Made by a program: the position numbers and the translations under genes. A model generated the notes under the pieces. It was not told where the DNA came from. It saw nothing but the letters and a program-made list of their open reading frames with translations, and did no database searches. From Bdellovibrionota bacterium FG-1 (GTDB lineage: Bacteria; Bdellovibrionota; UBA1018), in the NCBI GenBank assembly GCA_051382295.1, contig JBBCAW010000033.1, forward strand, positions 1 to 64,000: DNA of 64,000 bases, read 5' to 3'. Positions 9,389 through 17,588 of this stretch are shown here, piece after piece (the stretch's first letter is position 1; the number at the start of each line of letters is the position of its first letter).

Positions 9389-9642
9389 TGAGGTCCATCC
9401 CCCTGGGTTAATTAAGGAGGATATAACTTGAAGGAACGGTAATGGCTAGGAAATCTGGGTTCCTCTTGAGGGATGCTGCGATGCACCCAAGGGAGCGCCG
9501 GGTCCAGCGGCCCGGGCCTATACCCACCTCCGCAAGGAATGGGTGTTTGGTGGAAAAAAATGAATGAGGATTGGGCAAGAGGTCCTATAAGGAGTTGATT
9601 TTTACCCTTTATAAACCATTGCCCCAATGTTACAAACCCAGA

Positions 9643-10221
9643 ATGGCGCAAAACAAACAACCCACCCTCCCCGGTTTTAATTTCAAAACCAGCGGGGCCT
9701 CGCACGGTGGCGATCTCAATCAAGGCAAGCGCAAAACCGCGCGTCCGATAGATCCCAAGCAGGCAGTGCACCTCGTCCTGCGCTCATCCATGGCCCGGGG
9801 CCAATATTCGATGCTCAGAAAGGCCAACAGCGAAGCGATTGAGGCACTTCTGCAAAAGCTGGCCAAAAAATGGGACGTGCGGGTTTTTCGGTACGCCAAT
9901 GTGGGCAATCACCTCCACCTCCTGCTCCGTGTGCGCTCCCGCGCGGTTTGGAAGCGTTTTTTGCGGCAGTTTGCCGGCGGAATTGCGATGATCGTAACCG
10001 GCGCACGCAAAGGTCACGGCCGGGCGCCTAATTCGACCGGGCGCACGTTTTGGGACGAACTCGCGTTCACGCGCATCGTAAACTTCGGACGCGATTTCGA
10101 TCGCGTGGCGAGGTATCTGGTCAAAAACCTGTTTGAAGCCATGGGTATCCCCATGAAAGAGCTTTTAGCCGAGGGTTATCGAATTTGCGTGATCAGCAAA
10201 ACAGGCCTGGTGCCTATCTAG
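9643..10221 (+). mobile_element. HUH (Y1) tyrosine transposase, REP-associated (RAYT)/IS200-like
   Basis: VHLVLRS, YANVGNHLHLLL (HUH motif), FW...FTR, ARYLVKN (catalytic Tyr); ATG at 9643 preferred over TTG at 9571. Confidence 0.8.
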
Positions 10222-10553
10222 ATGCAAATTTTAACGCTTCTATTTTTGACCTTGATCGCAGTACTCCCTTCTTGCAAAGGCATGGGCTCAACCTTCCTGC
10301 AACGACCCCAACGTCTTTTCAATTCAGCGTCTTTATTTCCCAAACCAAGCCGGCTCACCCCAATTTAACTACCGCTTTAGATGGACCCACGGGGGGCGGG
10401 ATGCAATCAAGAGATCACGTCCAAGACGCCCTTGCCACTCTAGCCGCAGTCAGAGCAAAAAATACTATTTACTACGGAAGTTCCTGGCACCGTATTTCAA
10501 GGATTTGTCGACCAATGCAATGCGCTCAAAGTGCTTCCTATCGGGGCGGTGAT

Positions 10554-12458
10554 TTAGGTGATAGAAAACGGTGGCTCTTTCTCTCTGACCCCGCAGAGCC
10601 AGCTCATTTTATCTACGTCTGCCGGTGGCAGCCCAGTTGCCAAATAAATTTGCTTAAAGCCCATGCCAAAAATATCACGAGCCACCCATTCACCTTGAAC
10701 CTCGACGCCCTGTTTGTTCTTACCAAGGTAGGAGTCGATATAAATGGGCACCGTTCGGTCGAGGCTGTCGGCCTTGTCAAGAAATTCATCCACCGATCTA
10801 AATCCTTCGTACTTGCAGCCCGCTTTTTTGGCTGAAAATTTCCAACTGAGATGCACTATTTCGTCGTCATCAATCAGGATGGCATCCAGCCGCTCAGCTG
10901 GCACGGTCTTCTCGGTCGCGAGCACGCGGATGGGTACGAAGCCCGCCATACCCTTGGGGATGAGAGGCACTTGAAGACGCTCGCAGCGTACACGAATGGC
11001 GGGGTCCTCGAAACGACTCGTCACCAAAATGCTATTAGCGGCAATGCCCAACTCCTCGATAAGATCAAGCCCGGAATCAGCAAAACCCAGAAGCTCATAG
11101 TCAAATAAATAGCGCGATGAAGTAGTCTGCTTCGCGGCGTCCGCAATCCATCTTCTTAGCTCCGTGGGAGTAGACAAATGGACCAGCTTGATTCCCTGGT
11201 CACCCAATTGAGCCGAGTCGGCGCGACCGTCCCAAATTCGATGAATGCTCTCGTCGTCGTCCAGCACGACTAGTGTGGAATGAGGAATGAGCGTTAGCTC
11301 TGCTACAAACCAAGCGGGAGCCCTGACTTGCGGTAGGGTAATGACAATAGCCGTGCCGTGACCAACCTTTGACTGAAGTTCTAACTTACCGCCCCAGGAT
11401 TCCACTGAGGTTCGGGCATGATAGAGGCCAAGCCCGGAGCCACCCACCTTACCGTGTGTTTGACCTCGTTGTCCAAGTTTGGCTAAAATTTCAGATGGGA
11501 TACCCTTACCATTGTCCCTGACTTCAATCTGAATCTGCTTATCGCTGATTGCGCCCAGGCTGATAGTCACTTTACCCTTATCACCCAGGGCCTCGACGCT
11601 GTTGTTTACCAAGTTAGAAAGAACGCGCTTAAACTCATTGGGCTGAATACCGGCAAATAACCCATACGCTGATTCGAGGTGGGCTTCGATTTCGATGCCC
11701 ATCTTGGGGCGATACTGCATTCGTTTTTCGGTAATCAGTCCGTCCATGAGGCTGGGTATGAGCTGGGTACTCACATTTTCGACGGCGATGCCGGGTCCAT
11801 GCTGGGTTGATTGTTCAGCCTTGCCGTCCTCTCGGTTTTTATCAAGTAAGTGGTTAGCAATATCTCGAATACGGCTCACCGCACTTCGCACTAATATCCG
11901 AGTCTCTTCCGGCAAGGCACCAAACTCTTTCTCGGCCATGGTCAGTGCTGCAAGCGGAGAGCGAATGTCATGGGCTACTTGGGCCGCAAGATTGGCCATC
12001 TGAATTTTGGCGTTGAGCCTAGTCCGTTCGCTTAAACGGGTAGAAAACACCAAAGAGGCGATCAAGAATATTTGGAGGATCGCAAACGTAACAATGGCCA
12101 CATTGAGCTCGTGCGGAAGCCCCAACGTAAACTCGATGGAAATTTCGCTAGTTTTGTTTGAATCAACCGTTACGCGCTCCCTCGCCAAGCCTGCTGAGCA
12201 GGTGCCATTTCTCTTCTCAAAAAAAACATTTTCGCCTCGTTTGCCAATGATGCAAACAGACGAGACTGTATCGGTCAGTGCGTTGAGTCGGGTCGCTAGC
12301 GCATAGGTATCGCCGGTGCTTAGCTCCTGAAAATTTTCATGCTCAAAGTTGGCCGCAAACTGCACAGAATTGATCCTGAGATAATGACGAGTAAAAACCA
12401 GGCACCCAAGGATCGAAATAACCGCAAAAACAAACGGAATCAGGGTGATCTTTTTCAC
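10554..12458 (-). CDS. Membrane hybrid sensor histidine kinase with two C-terminal receiver-like domains
   Basis: Two TM segments flanking a short periplasmic domain; AAQVAHDIRSPL (H box), NLVNNS, DNGKG, GSGLGL; LVVLDDD...YLFD and ILIDDD...IYID receiver-like motifs; GTG at 12458 is the likely start (track start 12494). Confidence 0.88.
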   Translation of the reverse strand: MKKITLIPFVFAVISILGCLVFTRHYLRINSVQFAANFEHENFQELSTGDTYALATRLNALTDTVSSVCIIGKRGENVFFEKRNGTCSAGLARERVTVDSNKTSEISIEFTLGLPHELNVAIVTFAILQIFLIASLVFSTRLSERTRLNAKIQMANLAAQVAHDIRSPLAALTMAEKEFGALPEETRILVRSAVSRIRDIANHLLDKNREDGKAEQSTQHGPGIAVENVSTQLIPSLMDGLITEKRMQYRPKMGIEIEAHLESAYGLFAGIQPNEFKRVLSNLVNNSVEALGDKGKVTISLGAISDKQIQIEVRDNGKGIPSEILAKLGQRGQTHGKVGGSGLGLYHARTSVESWGGKLELQSKVGHGTAIVITLPQVRAPAWFVAELTLIPHSTLVVLDDDESIHRIWDGRADSAQLGDQGIKLVHLSTPTELRRWIADAAKQTTSSRYLFDYELLGFADSGLDLIEELGIAANSILVTSRFEDPAIRVRCERLQVPLIPKGMAGFVPIRVLATEKTVPAERLDAILIDDDEIVHLSWKFSAKKAGCKYEGFRSVDEFLDKADSLDRTVPIYIDSYLGKNKQGVEVQGEWVARDIFGMGFKQIYLATGLPPADVDKMSWLCGVREKEPPFSIT

Positions 12459-12489
12459 AGTGGCGTTTTTATAGTTCTTTAGTGTATTA

Positions 12490-12507
12490 GTCAAGAACAG
12501 TCTTGAC
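12490..12507. promoter_or_regulatory. Inverted repeat forming back-to-back -35-like TTGAC boxes between the divergent kinase and peptide genes
   Basis: GTCAAGA-acag-TCTTGAC; TTGACG on + (12503-12508) and TTGACT on - (12494-12489). Confidence 0.55.
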
Positions 12508-12538
12508 GAAGCATCCTACGCATGATAGCTAACGACCG

Positions 12539-12679
12539 ATGAAAAACGCTATTTGTTCAATTGTAGCTCTGTTTCTCATGACCCTCGGACTTCATGCATT
12601 CGCAGATCACTTTGCTAATAACGGAAGTGGCACCGAAATTAGGGTTCCTGGCGAGCGCCCGATTGGAAATATTGGTTAG
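12539..12679 (+). CDS. Small secreted peptide, 46 aa, not in the ORF track; putative signalling/RiPP precursor
   Basis: My translation: MKNAICSIVALFLMTLGLHAFA-DHFANNGSGTEIRVPGERPIGNIG*. Basic n-region, hydrophobic h-region, A-F-A signal peptidase I site; sits just downstream of a promoter-like element. Confidence 0.75.
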   Translation: MKNAICSIVALFLMTLGLHAFADHFANNGSGTEIRVPGERPIGNIG

Positions 12680-12762
12680 ATTTTGTGTCGAATTGCCCCT
12701 TAAAATGGCGGCACTCATTGTCTCCTATTCATGCCCTAGTTTGACATCGGGAGGGTTGCTTC

Positions 12763-14277
12763 TTGTTGAGACGCTCTATCGTGTGGATTTTAGCTTTGTT
12801 TGCTCCCTGGGTTTCCGCCTGTTGGAATGAAAAAATGGATAATTTATCAGGTAAAGATTCGAAGATAACCCAGGTCTGGATGCCAGGTCGCCCCACTTCC
12901 GTGGACCCGCTTGATTGCGATTCCTTTGTGCATCACATTGCTTTTCGCTCAGTGCTTGGAACTTTGGTGACTACCTATCGGCTAGGGGGCTTTACCGGGG
13001 TCATTGCCGATGGTTGGCAGGTTTCCGAAGACCAAACGCAATGGCAATTTAGTATTTCCAAGGAAGCTAAGTTTGAAACCGGCGCCCCAATCACTCCGCT
13101 GGATGTGATTAGGTCGTGGAAAAGGGTAGCATTCTTATTGAAGAAGAAAAAATCGCATTCTGATTTTCTAGATTCGATTGTGGGAATGGATAGTCTTTCT
13201 GCGATAGATAGTCCCGTAAGTGGTCTTGAAGTTTCTGGCACCAAGATATTGGTTCGGCTTCGCCATCCTTACAAAAAAATACTCGAAACACTCTCTTTTG
13301 GACTTTATTCGGTGGTCAGTCCCTCAGACTTCAACCCAGTCAGTGGCCAATGGGTAGACCTCAAGAAAGCGGTGTCCTCGAACGCCTACAAAATTAGGAA
13401 CTGGAGTGATCAGGAAATAAATCTAGAACTGCGCAATGACAGAGTTGAACCGAGATGGCATTCACGACCTATCCAGAAATTGAGGCTCGTCTGGGATGAA
13501 TCTAAGCAGCTGGAATCTCAACTGGTCATTGGTGATTCAAATGATGCGTCTTTGTCGAAGAAATTCACATTCTTTGGGGCCATGCCTTCTGGCATCGCCT
13601 TTGGGCGTTGCTTCTCATGGAAAAAACAGGGCAGCGTTTGCAATAGCCCGGAGAACCGAAGATCAATTCGAGATTTGATTTATGAGGCGTTAAGCGCAGG
13701 AGGCATTCGTCCTGTAAAATCATTTTTCCCGCTTGGCATGCAAGGGGTCCATGAAGTTGCTGATACGGACACTTCTTCCGCGATAAAGTCGTTAAAGGGA
13801 ATAAGCCAACTGAGGGTTTTTTACCGACGTAAGATCGGAAATGGAATTTTCGAGGCCATACGGTCAAATATTTCAACAACGGCTAATGCCCGCAGAATTC
13901 AAATGAACGAAATTGATTTCTCCTATGACGTCCTTCAGCAGCAATTAAGCCCAGAATTAGATCAGTTTGCTGCGGATGTTGGAATTATGCTATCAGACAT
14001 AGAAGTCAAAGACCCCAATGCTGACATTCGGTTCATGTTTTTGAGCAAAGAAGGTATCCGTCTCCCAGACGTCACTGGTGATATTCACCGTGAACTCGAA
14101 AAGCCGGATTTCTCGGCCCAACGTATTAATCAGTTACTCTGGGATCAGGCTGTCATTTTCCCCTTGGGGCACTTTTCTTTTGGGGTGTGGGCATCTGACC
14201 GCTACGATCTGAGTTTGCTCAACACGGTGGAGCCGCCAATAGAATTTCAGTGGATTGGCTGGAAGTCTGCGCAATGA
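12763..14277 (+). CDS. Family-5 (oligopeptide/OppA-like) substrate-binding lipoprotein with no adjacent permease or ATPase
   Basis: Lipobox-like VSAC; PTSVDP, IADGWQVSEDQTQWQF, AKFETGAPITPLDVIRSW N-terminal SBP5-type signature; GGAGGG RBS upstream. Confidence 0.8.
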   Translation: MLRRSIVWILALFAPWVSACWNEKMDNLSGKDSKITQVWMPGRPTSVDPLDCDSFVHHIAFRSVLGTLVTTYRLGGFTGVIADGWQVSEDQTQWQFSISKEAKFETGAPITPLDVIRSWKRVAFLLKKKKSHSDFLDSIVGMDSLSAIDSPVSGLEVSGTKILVRLRHPYKKILETLSFGLYSVVSPSDFNPVSGQWVDLKKAVSSNAYKIRNWSDQEINLELRNDRVEPRWHSRPIQKLRLVWDESKQLESQLVIGDSNDASLSKKFTFFGAMPSGIAFGRCFSWKKQGSVCNSPENRRSIRDLIYEALSAGGIRPVKSFFPLGMQGVHEVADTDTSSAIKSLKGISQLRVFYRRKIGNGIFEAIRSNISTTANARRIQMNEIDFSYDVLQQQLSPELDQFAADVGIMLSDIEVKDPNADIRFMFLSKEGIRLPDVTGDIHRELEKPDFSAQRINQLLWDQAVIFPLGHFSFGVWASDRYDLSLLNTVEPPIEFQWIGWKSAQ

Positions 14278-15206
14278 ATCTGGCTCCCTGGAAATATCGC
14301 AACATCCGAAGCGACCAGGGTGGGCCGATTGAAAAACTTTTAGTTCAACCCGTTGTGCTCTCTTCCAGAATGCCCGCTTTTGAAGCCTTGGCAAAACTAG
14401 ATGTCCGATTATTGCCAGATCGAGAGCGGGTAGGCAAAGAGCCTGTATCTATCTATGGCCATTTTGAAGGTGCGGGCACTTCAAAGTATCGAAGTATTGC
14501 TTGTTATAAAGCTATATCCGAGGCCTTGGAAAGATGGGCACTTAAGAGTTTGAGGGGCCAGGAATCTGGAAATGCCTATGGCTTTGACATTGATCCTTAT
14601 TCAAATGGAATGGCTGCCTTTCCGGGCCTGACCAGGGCAAATGCTCGGCACATTGCCTTTCGCGAGGGAATCGAGAGGTGGTCGATTATTGCATGGTGGA
14701 ATGGAGAAATCGGCGCCCGAGAGGTTCAGCTTCCGATCCCCGACGTTCAGGTCTTTCACCTTCAAACCGTTGTACCGAATGTTGAGACAGTGGTGCTGTT
14801 CGCTCATTCCCCGGCCCATCGCGCTGGCTGTTACGCTTTTGGGGGTGGGGCCACATTTAGCGCTGCCGTCGAAAAGGCTTTGGTAGAGTTGGAACGAAAT
14901 CAGCGTGCGCTAGATCACTATTACGGTAAAACAGGGCTAACGCCCGATAATGCCTGGCATGCAATAGATGAACTTTCAGATATTTTTGAACGGCGGTTAC
15001 TCTATTTTTCAAGCAAGCGTGGTATCGTGGATTTTTTTGATAAAGTGCAGCGAGATGCCAACCGAGTGAGCCCAGGCTTGCCTCGGCTCATTGTCGATTC
15101 TGAAATTCTGGGGCCTTGGTCACGGTATGCGACTATTTGGCGATGTCTTTTTCAATTTCCCTCTAGAGAGTATCTCACCAATCGAGAGGATTACTTTTTC
15201 TTCTAA
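14274..15206 (+). CDS. Stand-alone YcaO-like ATP-dependent peptide backbone-modifying enzyme
   Basis: GAGTS...KAISEALERWA, SNGMAA, REGIER, KALVELER match YcaO ATP/Mg-binding motifs; ATGA overlap with the SBP stop at 14274-14277. Confidence 0.8.
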   Translation: MNLAPWKYRNIRSDQGGPIEKLLVQPVVLSSRMPAFEALAKLDVRLLPDRERVGKEPVSIYGHFEGAGTSKYRSIACYKAISEALERWALKSLRGQESGNAYGFDIDPYSNGMAAFPGLTRANARHIAFREGIERWSIIAWWNGEIGAREVQLPIPDVQVFHLQTVVPNVETVVLFAHSPAHRAGCYAFGGGATFSAAVEKALVELERNQRALDHYYGKTGLTPDNAWHAIDELSDIFERRLLYFSSKRGIVDFFDKVQRDANRVSPGLPRLIVDSEILGPWSRYATIWRCLFQFPSREYLTNREDYFFF

Positions 15207-15209
15207 CAC

Positions 15210-17588
15210 TCACTTCGAGTGCATCTCCCAGCTTCCATCCCAGTCCTTCTCTGGAGGCGCGGCTTTAAAATCGCGGCATCGCTCAAGGTACATGGCGCAA
15301 GGCCCATCCGGAACTTCCGCAGAAACCGCAAGAAGCACATTCGCCTGCATAAATTTCTCGGTGGCGGTATCCCATTGTTGCTCAGTATAAAGCTTACGCC
15401 CCTCTTGAAAAAGAGCCAGCCCTTCATCTGAATACGGGCGATCCAAGACTTGGATCAACTCCACGGCCTTTTTCTTGCCTTTGACTTTGACATGATCCAA
15501 AACCCGATGGTCTGGAAGTTTGTCACCCGCCTTTTCGATCTCATCAAAGGTAAAGCGCGTGGTCAAAATAGTCACTGTATAGGCCTTTGTCAGACCTTCA
15601 AGTCGTGAAGACAGATTGACGTGGTCCCCAATGACGGTATAAGCAAAGTTGTCGGTCGAACCCATATTGCCAACATTCACCGGCCCGGAGTTAATCCCCA
15701 CCCCCACGTTGACGTCCACATTGAACTGCTCGAACCAGCGTTTCTTATTTTGCGCGAGCGCCTGCATCATCGCCACGGCCGCTTTGCACGAATTGAGCGC
15801 ATGCTTGGGCTGATCAAGCGGTGCGCCCCAAAAAGCCATGATCGCATCCCCAATGTATTTATCCAAAGTACCGTTGTTCGCAAAAACGATCTTGGTCATA
15901 ATTCCCAAATAGTCATTCAAAAACTGGGCAAGCACCTTGGCATCCAAACGCTCTGAAAAAGTCGTAAAACTTCGAATATCGGAGAACATGATCGTAAGAT
16001 CCCGCTTTTCGCCTCCGACCGTCAGCTTGGCGGGGTCCTTCAAAATCGAATCCACCACGGCCGGCGCGACGTACTTGGCAAAGGCCGAACGAACGAACTT
16101 CTTATTGCGCTCTTCTAAAACGTATTTGACTGCCAGGGTAAAAAGAAAAATACAAAAATACTCGAGATAGAAAAAGGAACTATTCAGCGAGATTCCATGC
16201 ACAAAGGCCTTATAGTCGGCGTAGCCCGCGCCCGAAAACACCGCCACGAATAACAACAACGCCGGAATAGCTTCGAATCTTTGAACCGCAAAGCCAAAAA
16301 GCATCGCGCCGATAACCATCAGACCTAAGATAAAAACTGATCCTTTGCTCCGATACCCCGGAGTCAACATGTCGGCGGACAGAAGATTGTCCAAAATATT
16401 GGCGTGCCCCTCGACCCCAGCCACATTCGAATCCATCGGAAAGGCTCGCATGTCATTGGTCCCCAAAGCCGTCACGCCCACTAAGACGTAAGCATCTTTG
16501 AGCACGTCTTTTTTGGAGATACCAGCGAGCTTGCGATTGGCCTGATCTTCGAGCTGTTCGGTTTGATCATTCATCATTTCCGCAGCTGAAACATACGGAA
16601 AGGTCTGCCCTCCCCCTCGAAAGTTAATCTCAATGGAGCCCATCGCGGTAATGGGCAAATCGCGTCCGGATTTAGCAAACGAGAGATGCCGCACTCTTTC
16701 TTGCGGATCCAGCTCCAGAACAATTTTTTCATCTAACCCGATACGAGCCATTTCAAGAGGCAAAGCCGGATAAATTTTTCCGTTATAAAGCATCACGACC
16801 TGCGCCCGACGAATGACCTGATCTTGATCCGGAAACGCGTTAAAATAACCCGAGTGAGTAGCCACCGAACTATATTCTTCAATGTTAGACAGAAAAGTTA
16901 AAGCCGTCCAAATCGGAGTTTTCCACCCCGAAAAGCCGTCCGGAAGAATAGCCTCGGGCAGCGCAAATTTATCAAAACCCGCCGGAAAATTGCTCGCCAC
17001 CTCAGGCCCCACCGGCGGCACGGGACAAACCTCGGGATCAAAATCCGCGACCTTGTTCACATACCCTCGAAAAGCTTGATTGGGATGGCACATGGCTTCG
17101 CTGGCAATGCCCATCACCAAATGGTCGGCGTGCTTGAAAACAACACTCGTCAAAGCATGATCTGTTTCAAACTGATCAGTCTGTTGAGCCAAGATTCCGC
17201 GAGTTTCTAGAAAATTTTTGAGATCAGCCGGCACGCGCGGATCTTGCTCCGAAAACACGATATCGAGACCCACGACTTTTGCGCCCGCCGCAAAGATATT
17301 ATCGATCAAATGCGCGATGTGATTGCGATGCCAAGGCCAGCGTCCAAACTGCTCAATGGCGGGACTATCGACTTCGACGACGACGACCTTATTTTTAGGC
17401 GCCGTTGGGCCGCGCACTCTAAATTTGGCATCCGAAAACAGCGTCGAAACCCGTTGCAAAGCAGGATAGACTTTCTGATCCAAAAAATGGTTATTCAGTT
17501 CGCCCTGCAGTCCTTGTTCAGTCACCCAATAGAAAAAGGTAAAAACCAACACAAAAGGAATCTGAAAGAGCCAAAGTTTGTTTTTCAT
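15210..17588 (-). CDS. CHASE2-domain adenylate/guanylate cyclase
   Basis: GRWPWHR, VVGLDIVFSE, GVEGHAN (CHASE2); three TMs; FSDIRSFT, DKYIGDAIMAFW, YTVIGDHVNLSSRLE (cyclase). Confidence 0.93.
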   Translation of the reverse strand: MKNKLWLFQIPFVLVFTFFYWVTEQGLQGELNNHFLDQKVYPALQRVSTLFSDAKFRVRGPTAPKNKVVVVEVDSPAIEQFGRWPWHRNHIAHLIDNIFAAGAKVVGLDIVFSEQDPRVPADLKNFLETRGILAQQTDQFETDHALTSVVFKHADHLVMGIASEAMCHPNQAFRGYVNKVADFDPEVCPVPPVGPEVASNFPAGFDKFALPEAILPDGFSGWKTPIWTALTFLSNIEEYSSVATHSGYFNAFPDQDQVIRRAQVVMLYNGKIYPALPLEMARIGLDEKIVLELDPQERVRHLSFAKSGRDLPITAMGSIEINFRGGGQTFPYVSAAEMMNDQTEQLEDQANRKLAGISKKDVLKDAYVLVGVTALGTNDMRAFPMDSNVAGVEGHANILDNLLSADMLTPGYRSKGSVFILGLMVIGAMLFGFAVQRFEAIPALLLFVAVFSGAGYADYKAFVHGISLNSSFFYLEYFCIFLFTLAVKYVLEERNKKFVRSAFAKYVAPAVVDSILKDPAKLTVGGEKRDLTIMFSDIRSFTTFSERLDAKVLAQFLNDYLGIMTKIVFANNGTLDKYIGDAIMAFWGAPLDQPKHALNSCKAAVAMMQALAQNKKRWFEQFNVDVNVGVGINSGPVNVGNMGSTDNFAYTVIGDHVNLSSRLEGLTKAYTVTILTTRFTFDEIEKAGDKLPDHRVLDHVKVKGKKKAVELIQVLDRPYSDEGLALFQEGRKLYTEQQWDTATEKFMQANVLLAVSAEVPDGPCAMYLERCRDFKAAPPEKDWDGSWEMHSK

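Follow-up and report, generated by a model that had tools for sequence, protein, structure and literature searches.

A putative peptide-signalling unit of sensor kinase, peptide-binding protein, small exported peptide and stand-alone YcaO enzyme in Bdellovibrionota, with a related form in Opitutae

A stretch of 64,000 nucleotides from Bdellovibrionota bacterium FG-1 (GenBank assembly GCA_051382295.1, contig JBBCAW010000033.1, positions 1 to 64,000; hereafter the window) contains a four-gene unit for a sensor histidine kinase, a small exported peptide, a family-5 solute-binding protein (SBP) and a stand-alone YcaO enzyme, which looks like an undescribed peptide-signalling system. It is considered moderately probable that the SBP/kinase pair has as its ligand this peptide, once modified by the YcaO and exported through Sec, and that the four genes constitute a self-contained modified-peptide signalling module. 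This proposal, made in the first-pass annotation of the sequence, involves a peptide made on ribosomes and modified after translation (RiPP) and is borne out in part: profile matches, protein fold, conserved gene order, a family of related precursors and the lack of a permease gene beside the SBP gene speak for it, while co-variation does not. No description of such a unit was found in the literature searched, most subscription journals and supplementary genome-mining tables lying outside that search. Labels beginning with L, C and G denote loci, contigs and genomes of this analysis, G000 being the genome of the window.

Results

The four-gene unit

All four open reading frames (ORFs) claimed by the first-pass annotation, i.e. 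a kinase gene on the minus strand and genes for a 46-residue peptide, an SBP and a YcaO protein on the plus strand, are present (Table 1). The kinase and precursor genes are divergent, their starts being separated by 44 bp, and the SBP stop and YcaO start overlap as ATGA. In hidden Markov model comparisons, the assignment of the latter two proteins holds, the YcaO protein scoring 29.1 bits against PF02624 (cut-off 25.7) and the SBP 47.3 bits against SBP_bac_5 (PF00496; cut-off 32.4).

Table 1. Positions of the components of the unit within the window
Feature	Position	Strand	Description
Sensor histidine kinase, 646 aa	10554..12494	-	Two transmembrane helices flanking a periplasmic PAS-like domain of ~90 aa, HisKA (His175), HATPase_c, two divergent receiver-like domains
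Precursor peptide, 46 aa	12539..12679	+	Sec-type leader with family motif (Gly17 ... Ala22-Asp23), linker, C-terminal core
Predicted core, residues 41-46, P-I-G-N-I-G	12659..12676	+	P-x-G-N-I-G common to the L053 precursor
Orphan family-5 (OppA/DppA-like) SBP, 504 aa	12763..14277	+	Lipobox-like Cys20; proposed kinase co-receptor
Minimal stand-alone YcaO, 310 aa	14274..15206	+	Translationally coupled to SBP; conserved ATP-site motifs; C-terminus F-x-F

Gene order is conserved in two phyla

Among 1.84 billion representatives at 50% identity, 420 relatives of the YcaO protein were detected at E 0.001 or better and 205 at 1e-30, the 150 listed being mostly 280-340 residues long. An alignment-based locus scan gave 239 relatives in genome_contigs, of which the best 80 were kept, and 291 relatives (79 loci) in metagenome_contigs; unlike the alignment, a single sequence used as query gave no match in genome_contigs. 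Synteny counts were made over loci L053-L211, which were not de-duplicated.

The synteny on which the first-pass annotation had made its proposal depend was found among these homologs, the order of the cassette being kept in Bdellovibrionota and in Verrucomicrobiota (Opitutae). In the Bdellovibrionota-type layout, a kinase with a small periplasmic domain, encoded divergently or downstream, accompanies the precursor, the SBP and the YcaO. The Opitutae-type layout comprises a kinase of mostly 1150-1420 residues, divergent from the precursor and YcaO genes, and has no SBP. A divergent kinase was scored in 56 of the 57 SBP-less loci that extend 4.3 kb upstream, and the 57th has one too, its ORF having been over-extended, while among SBP-bearing loci with 1.8 kb upstream a divergent kinase was seen in 8/11 and any kinase in 9/11. 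Any SBP match was limited to one of 138 SBP-less loci, and a second kinase-type gene lies just downstream in 69 of the 100 such loci with room for it. These large kinases are beta-propeller hybrid kinases: of five tested, four have Y_Y_Y and/or Reg_prop domains together with receiver domains. No exporter or immunity-type gene recurs downstream in the loci.

Among the best 80 relatives kept, the closest named relatives of the window YcaO are Bdellovibrionota, with L053 closest. Only 24 of 401 sampled genomes of this phylum match at E 1e-25, and the unit is therefore patchy within it. In a YcaO tree of 67 rows, made as a quick version only, a branch with SH-aLRT 91 has the 27 Opitutae-type rows all to one side, in the midst of Bdellovibrionota-type rows. 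The Opitutae form is carried by named type or cultured strains, namely Cerasicoccus arenae KCTC 12870, Thalassobacterium spp. and Horticoccus sp.

Some loci depart from or extend these layouts. Five marine Opitutae-type loci adjoin a convergent gene for a TonB-dependent receptor, and L062, L128 and L190, from an Opitutae clade shared with L167, are convergent to a signal peptidase I gene. In family f13 (L039, L041, L042, L046 and L266-L268; genomes G005-G009) the unit is split or eroded, and in L039, L042 and L046 the YcaO gene is followed by one for a nitroreductase-family flavin mononucleotide enzyme that could act as a dehydrogenase.

The peptide is one of a family of precursors that share a leader and differ in core

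The 46-residue Sec-type peptide, singled out in the first-pass annotation, was found to be a member of a precursor family. Of 107 distinct Opitutae-type peptides, 99 have Gly at -9 and 95 have Ala at -4, the numbering being relative to a script-chosen anchor Asp/Glu. A leader matrix trained on 51 non-redundant Opitutae-type leaders, with 746 signal-like N-termini of the window's genome as background, places the window peptide above 744 of these 746 and 11 of 15 Bdellovibrionota-type precursors (two of them identical) in the top 1%, together with none of three peptides from other cassette types. When 37,063 small-ORF starts were scanned for the leader motif, a procedure that is circular for the Opitutae rows, 147 matches fell at the cassette position and seven elsewhere, six of which are family precursors by eye; 117 of 143 eligible loci have such an ORF at the cassette position. 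The majority of leaders close with small-x-Ala and have Ala, Glu or Asp next, a pattern typical of signal peptidase I sites under the (-3,-1) rule, and for the window precursor the predicted cut falls after Ala20-x-Ala22.

Divergence is faster in cores than in leaders, with identities of 45% and 71%, respectively, across the 36 closest pairs (YcaO identity of at least 85%). Precursors occur in tandem in 18 loci, and cores are repeated in L105, L109, L163, L062 and L167; the tandem-precursor clade (L092, L096, L101, L183 and 14 more) combines a Cys core and a Cys-free, Gly-rich core behind the same leader motif. The two precursors of L044 have nearly the same leader and distinct cores, and a separate SBP follows each of them. 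Cys is present in 101 of the 107 Opitutae-type cores (preceded by Pro, Ser or Ala in 92), and C-x(2-3)-C in 50, as compared with Cys in 3 of 28 hand-picked Bdellovibrionota-type cores. In the latter set G-[GSAP]?-N, one of the Gly-Asn motifs chosen after the data had been seen, occurs in 18 cores (shuffle mean 10.5; 3/5000 shuffles as high). The window and L053 peptides have P-x-G-N-I-G in common behind unrelated linkers. Since the sole Cys of the window peptide sits in its signal region, a Cys azoline is impossible for it, and the last 14 residues are free of Cys, Ser and Thr.

No NCBIfam family covers the precursors, and matches to them in the ESM Atlas (at most 0.78) were uninformative. The leader-like precursor frame at L049 10260-10450 is broken in a T run, by assembly error or inactivation, and some members of the Opitutae clade L062, L128, L167 and L190 have Asp-rich repeated cores, L062 being without Cys.

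A true minimal YcaO

The model of the YcaO protein (pLDDT 96.4) has as its top Foldseek match the Methanopyrus YcaO (MkYcaO, 6ci7; E 1.3e-8). VIA Z scores to five YcaOs are 16.8 (McbD; rmsd 4.1, 265 residues aligned), 16.1 (LynD), 15.7 (MkYcaO), 14.3 and 12.0, the next unrelated fold reaching 6.2. The alignment to McbD runs from C-terminus to C-terminus (model 11-310, chain 4-396), and the C-terminus aligns with that of LynD as well. In an alignment of 128 rows, taken from the 150 listed relatives of the 420, the ATP/Mg-binding motifs S-E-x-x-E-R and E-x-x-E-R are nearly invariant: S82 is kept in 128/128, E83 and E86 in 127, R87 in 124, E134, R135 and E205 in 127 and R208 in 125. Because the fold matches and the ATP-site residues are kept, the window protein is a true, minimal YcaO and, judged from model and sequence, probably active as an enzyme.

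It is a member of its own family. The PF02624 score is marginal, one of two Opitutae homologs tested falling just under the cut-off; TIGR03604 gives 23 bits against a cut-off of 219, and the top PDB sequence match, MusD, is weak (E 0.03). The C-terminus follows the pattern F-x-F/W, with Phe at -3 in 127 of 128 rows and a final Phe or Trp in 123; a catalytic role of the terminal carboxylate has been suggested (bioRxiv 10.1101/2025.07.11.664356).

The SBP and the kinase as a candidate receptor

The minus-strand gene had been called a hybrid histidine kinase. Its kinase part stands, with HATPase_c at E 1.6e-23 and HisKA below the Pfam cut-off (E 0.004), while the hybrid part comes down to two C-terminal domains that Pfam Response_reg misses and that are weakly receiver-like. 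In profile-profile comparison both align over 90-93 columns to Pfam-confirmed receivers, weakly (probability 48% and 24%; E 2e-4 and 9e-4), with the acidic pair and the phospho-acceptor Asp in register in those weak alignments, by which they are taken to be divergent receiver-like domains. The periplasmic domain of about 90 residues has a conserved Cys pair (C81/C99). Its model shows likeness to PAS-like sensor and LapD-type output domains, the best VIA Z, 8.8 to the LapD type, being within the range of common arrangements, and gave no Foldseek match at E 0.001; its sequence matched nothing in the PDB.

The SBP was described as a lipoprotein, which fits the lipobox-like VSAC (Cys20) of the window protein but does not extend to most of 22 aligned relatives, which by eye are anchored N-terminally without a lipobox. 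In the PDB the SBP profile finds OppA3 (E 5e-25) and also OppA, DppE, MppA and PrgZ (E 1.2e-13), the C-terminal part being left uncovered; OppA, DppE and MppA are better matches than PrgZ. There is no Opp/Dpp permease or ATPase gene beside the SBP in the window cluster, two OppC-type permease matches in the same genome lying on another contig. Ten of the 16 family-5 SBP genes of this genome are within ~4.5 kb of a kinase gene.

Indirect evidence that the SBP and the small kinase form a receptor comes above all from the distribution of the SBP, which is lacking precisely in those loci whose kinase has a large sensor: the Opitutae loci, in which the SBP is absent and the kinase has its own large periplasmic sensor, fit a role of the SBP as the receptor arm. 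Complex prediction of the SBP (32-502) with the kinase periplasmic domain (30-142) from alignments of 18 rows scored 0.00 twice, which has no bearing either way. SBP and kinase may make up a modular receptor platform on which synthases can be exchanged.

Further SBP/kinase pairs of the genome have varied neighbours. Those on C21, C54 and C120 carry distantly related YcaO-type genes: C54 has an exported precursor of 73-92 residues and a YcaO with a PHP motif at its end, C120 a 55-residue precursor ending in Gly-rich T-C-D-F with a receiver-domain regulator downstream, and C21 no clear precursor. By eye, other putative signal-making genes beside such pairs can be labelled radical-SAM-like (C10) and methyltransferase-like (C62), and the pair on C19 lies beside genes for a 45-residue exported peptide ending in G-G-G-N-P-G-P and a hydrolase-like protein. 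Pairs with putative signal-making neighbours are also found on C8 and C119.

Co-variation of leader, core, enzyme and sensor

Co-variation, which the first-pass annotation had put forward as a check, was analysed by partial Mantel tests on 53 Opitutae-type loci, kin not being independent in either the first or the stricter version. The association of core with sensor (r 0.16, p 0.001 in the first version) did not persist when synonymous-site and fast-evolving covariates were included (r 0.005, p 0.48). Leader similarity tracks YcaO similarity after the stricter controls (r 0.20, p 0.001).

Neighbouring sequence

The block, which had looked AT-richer than its flanks, has a mild AT bias (48.5% GC versus 51.3% for the genome; 6.7% of 1970 equal-size windows are as low), the precursor-SBP-YcaO stretch having 47.1% GC. 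A RAYT-like gene does lie nearby, at 9571-10221, as had been noted, but is no part of the conserved unit; it occurs in about ten copies or fragments in the genome, is no conserved neighbour of the cassette and was rejected as a component of the system. On the other side, a CHASE2 adenylate/guanylate cyclase gene (15210-17588, minus strand) converges on the YcaO gene and is no conserved neighbour in related loci.

Positions 10271-10544 consist of stitched fragments of an alpha/beta-hydrolase-like gene, an intact copy of which lies on contig C109 (L003, L008). C109 in turn carries stitched cassette fragments (corresponding to window 10531-10567, 10737-10777, 12820-12927 and 15140-15209) joined at short microhomologies, and both reciprocally decayed loci adjoin a RAYT-like gene. 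They could represent a pair of alleles, or one longer locus in two decayed copies, or could reflect an assembly effect. A promoter/terminator scan and a repeat search gave nothing above chance, and no sequencing runs were found for positions 12400-15300.

Discussion

Proposed mechanism

The precursor would be made in the cytoplasm, where its N-terminal helix, the conservation of which is observed, would serve both as Sec signal and as recognition handle for the YcaO. To judge from its fold and ATP-site motifs, this enzyme would activate a backbone amide of the C-terminal core with the help of ATP. The likeliest site is Gly43-Asn44, at which the Asn side-chain nitrogen may close a six-membered ring onto the preceding carbonyl with a loss of 18 Da; a thioamide or an amidine at the same site would be the alternative. 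Of the whole scheme, this modification by the YcaO is the most speculative step. The Asn-derived ring is favoured because it parallels the thiazoline that would be its Opitutae counterpart at [P/S/A]-Cys, i.e. at Cys after a small residue.

The modified peptide would leave via Sec, and signal peptidase I would free a periplasmic peptide of about 24 residues. The membrane-anchored SBP would bind it and pass the signal on to the small periplasmic domain of the kinase, much as in LuxP-LuxQ. The Opitutae counterpart of SBP and small kinase would be a kinase that has a beta-propeller sensor of its own. The kinase would signal to a regulator encoded elsewhere, and the variable cores would yield lineage-specific signals. 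The peptide may cross the outer membrane as a cell-density or kin signal, or act in the periplasm of its own cell; the label of quorum sensing requires passage across the outer membrane.

Observations that weigh against the signalling circuit

A number of findings count against a YcaO-modified peptide read by the SBP/kinase pair. The core-to-sensor association is null under the stricter controls, and the similarity of leaders goes along with that of the sensor too (r 0.17, p 0.016), which makes the link between leader and YcaO a non-exclusive one. Core chemistry is mixed across the family (Cys, Gly-Asn, Asp-rich): six of the 107 Opitutae cores are Cys-free, and Gly-Asn itself, a post hoc motif, is present in only 15 of the 28 Bdellovibrionota-type cores (shuffle mean 9.0; 33/5000 as high). 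On the enzyme side, PxP ends just one of 128 rows and is lacking in the window protein, the window cluster has no gene for an E1/RRE (RiPP recognition element) partner or a dehydrogenase, and no TfuA (PF07812) was found in G000, which is 97.7% complete, the control being matched in M. acetivorans. PxP is a mark of azoline-forming YcaOs (PMC7136475). The window cluster likewise contains no gene for an exporter, protease, outer-membrane channel or response regulator. Marine Opitutae leaders (L085, L095, L153, L132) are poor signal peptides, and in L045, L264, L268, L217 and L047 the stretch upstream of the SBP yielded no peptide. In G006 and G009 of family f13, kinase, YcaO and nitroreductase-family genes share one contig while peptide and SBP genes lie on another. 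Finally, contig C59 of the window's genome (11952-15879; L002) carries a pair of kinase and SBP (the latter 39% identical) that belongs to the same subfamily and has neither peptide nor YcaO, possibly a listen-only receptor.

Alternative explanations

The failure of core-to-sensor co-variation also agrees with an effector, i.e. a RiPP acting as narrow-spectrum antagonist or, like bufferins, as metal-binding peptide, with the kinase sensing some other cue and controlling production and the SBP serving self-protection or recovery. Variable cores suit antagonists too, C-x(2-3)-C pairs and the TonB receptors adjoining the five marine loci point the same way, and bufferins are Sec-exported, Cys-modified metal chelators (PMC11626156). 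Against this stand the rarity of Cys in Bdellovibrionota-type cores and the lack of a recurrent downstream exporter or immunity-type gene; the absence of the SBP exactly where the kinase has a large sensor ties the SBP to sensing and not to immunity. An effector is regarded as unlikely, being by a narrow margin the likeliest of the rivals.

Leaders conserved beyond generic signal-peptide needs, cores of non-uniform chemistry and the missing PxP motif would also be accommodated if there were no heterocyclic diffusible signal at all. MgrB and SafA are single-pass membrane modulators of kinases, and the small protein could be an uncleaved modulator of this type, or the YcaO could be an ATP-dependent, MusD-like peptidase that clips it. 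MusD is the top, albeit weak, PDB sequence match, and proteolysis by a YcaO is known (PMC13063428). The ends of most leaders, however, look like typical signal peptidase I sites, the repetition of cores and the tandem arrangement of precursors are traits of RiPPs, a cytoplasmic cut would strand the core without export signal, and the SBP would have no obvious role; we hold this explanation to be similarly unlikely.

It is improbable that the SBP is a pheromone-binding protein feeding a chromosomal Opp/Dpp permease in a PrgZ/TraC-like import route, with the kinase a mere neighbour. PrgZ is among its PDB matches and the genome has two OppC-type permease genes, but OppA, DppE and MppA outmatch PrgZ, the partner kept most constantly is the kinase, the loci show no recurrent intracellular receptor and those of Opitutae are devoid of an SBP. 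A chance meeting of the genes in an island, with a spurious small ORF or with a YcaO whose substrate is some other protein, as uL16 is for E. coli YcaO (folded proteins can be modified by stand-alone YcaOs; PMC13063428), would agree with the mild AT-richness and patchy occurrence of the block but is very improbable, being largely refuted by the conservation of gene order and leader across two phyla.

Comparison with known systems

Like RiPP systems in general, the proposed signalling unit places next to a modifying enzyme a small precursor whose leader is conserved and whose core varies. With azoline/azole RiPPs (LAP/TOMM peptides and cyanobactins; enzymes McbD, LynD/TruD, SagD of TIGR03604) it further shares the YcaO fold, the ATP-site motifs, the C-terminus alignment, cores that are sometimes repeated and, in the Opitutae arm, Cys cores. 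It differs from them in that the window enzyme is a stand-alone protein of 310 residues ending in F-x-F and not PxP, with a TIGR03604 score below the cut-off and neither E1/RRE nor dehydrogenase in the cluster, and in having a Sec-type leader and a sensor kinase link, with no dedicated protease or exporter and no Cys/Ser/Thr-rich core.

Thioamide-forming YcaOs, i.e. methanogen YcaO/TfuA acting on McrA and E. coli YcaO acting on uL16 (for the latter, PMC13063428), resemble the window enzyme in being compact and stand-alone, in supplying its top Foldseek match (MkYcaO) and in a possible Gly-containing target bond; they differ by the dedicated small precursor, the coupling to SBP and kinase and the lack of TfuA in the genome. 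TfuA-independent thioamidation by the window YcaO is possible. YcaO-built nucleobase-like rings exist (PMC13063428).

Bufferins, which are modified by MNIO (multinuclear non-heme iron-dependent oxidative) enzymes, are alike in their Sec signal on the precursor, cytoplasmic modification before export and diderm hosts, and as a precedent they make Sec export of a RiPP plausible. They belong with another enzyme family and act in metal chelation, and their signal peptide is dispensable for modification on overexpression (PMC11626156), the window family by comparison conserving a family-specific leader.

In its logic the unit would work like a Gram-positive modified-peptide pheromone circuit to which a receptor of LuxPQ type has been joined. 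Orphan periplasmic binding proteins beside a membrane kinase with a small PAS-like domain (Z at most 8.8, a middling value) are a feature it has in common with LuxP-LuxQ, TorT-TorS and HptA-HptS, which are binding-protein-dependent kinases; here SBP and kinase are joined by gene linkage, the SBP is of the family-5 peptide type and the proposed ligand is a gene-encoded peptide of the same cluster. The agr autoinducing peptide with AgrC, ComX/ComP and nisin/NisK are Gram-positive modified-peptide pheromone circuits, which likewise have precursor, modifying enzyme and sensor kinase at one locus and variable cores; the window unit differs in its diderm host, YcaO chemistry, Sec export and separate SBP receptor, and its locus is without cognate regulator or dedicated transporter. 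The unit is no member of the LAP/TOMM systems, the Gram-positive pheromone circuits or the LuxPQ-type receptors. In the 'spyrimidone' peptide-nucleobase hybrids reportedly described by Pei et al. in 2024, the ring is said to derive from Asn and to need dehydrogenases and follower removal. The window cluster has neither, a nitroreductase-family gene following YcaO in L039, L042 and L046.

Significance

A conserved modified-peptide circuit in two diderm phyla would extend the pheromone logic that is well established in Gram-positive bacteria. The YcaO family to which the unit points (420 representatives at 50% identity) is uncharacterised, its substrate family is defined and its backbone chemistry at Gly-Asn is probably new. 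The unit also provides candidate ligands for many orphan SBP/kinase pairs of Bdellovibrionota and for the beta-propeller kinases of Opitutae. A wider reading, which we put forward tentatively and with less than even confidence, is a widespread family of YcaO-made peptide autoinducers in diderms, in which the Sec signal serves as RiPP leader as well, a minimal YcaO forms an Asn-derived ring (Bdellovibrionota) or a thiazoline (Opitutae) in a lineage-specific core and the product is read between cells by interchangeable receptors, either a family-5 SBP with a small kinase or a beta-propeller kinase. If true, this would amount to a peptide language of kin or density for predatory-lineage and verrucomicrobial bacteria, with several parallel channels in genomes like the present one.

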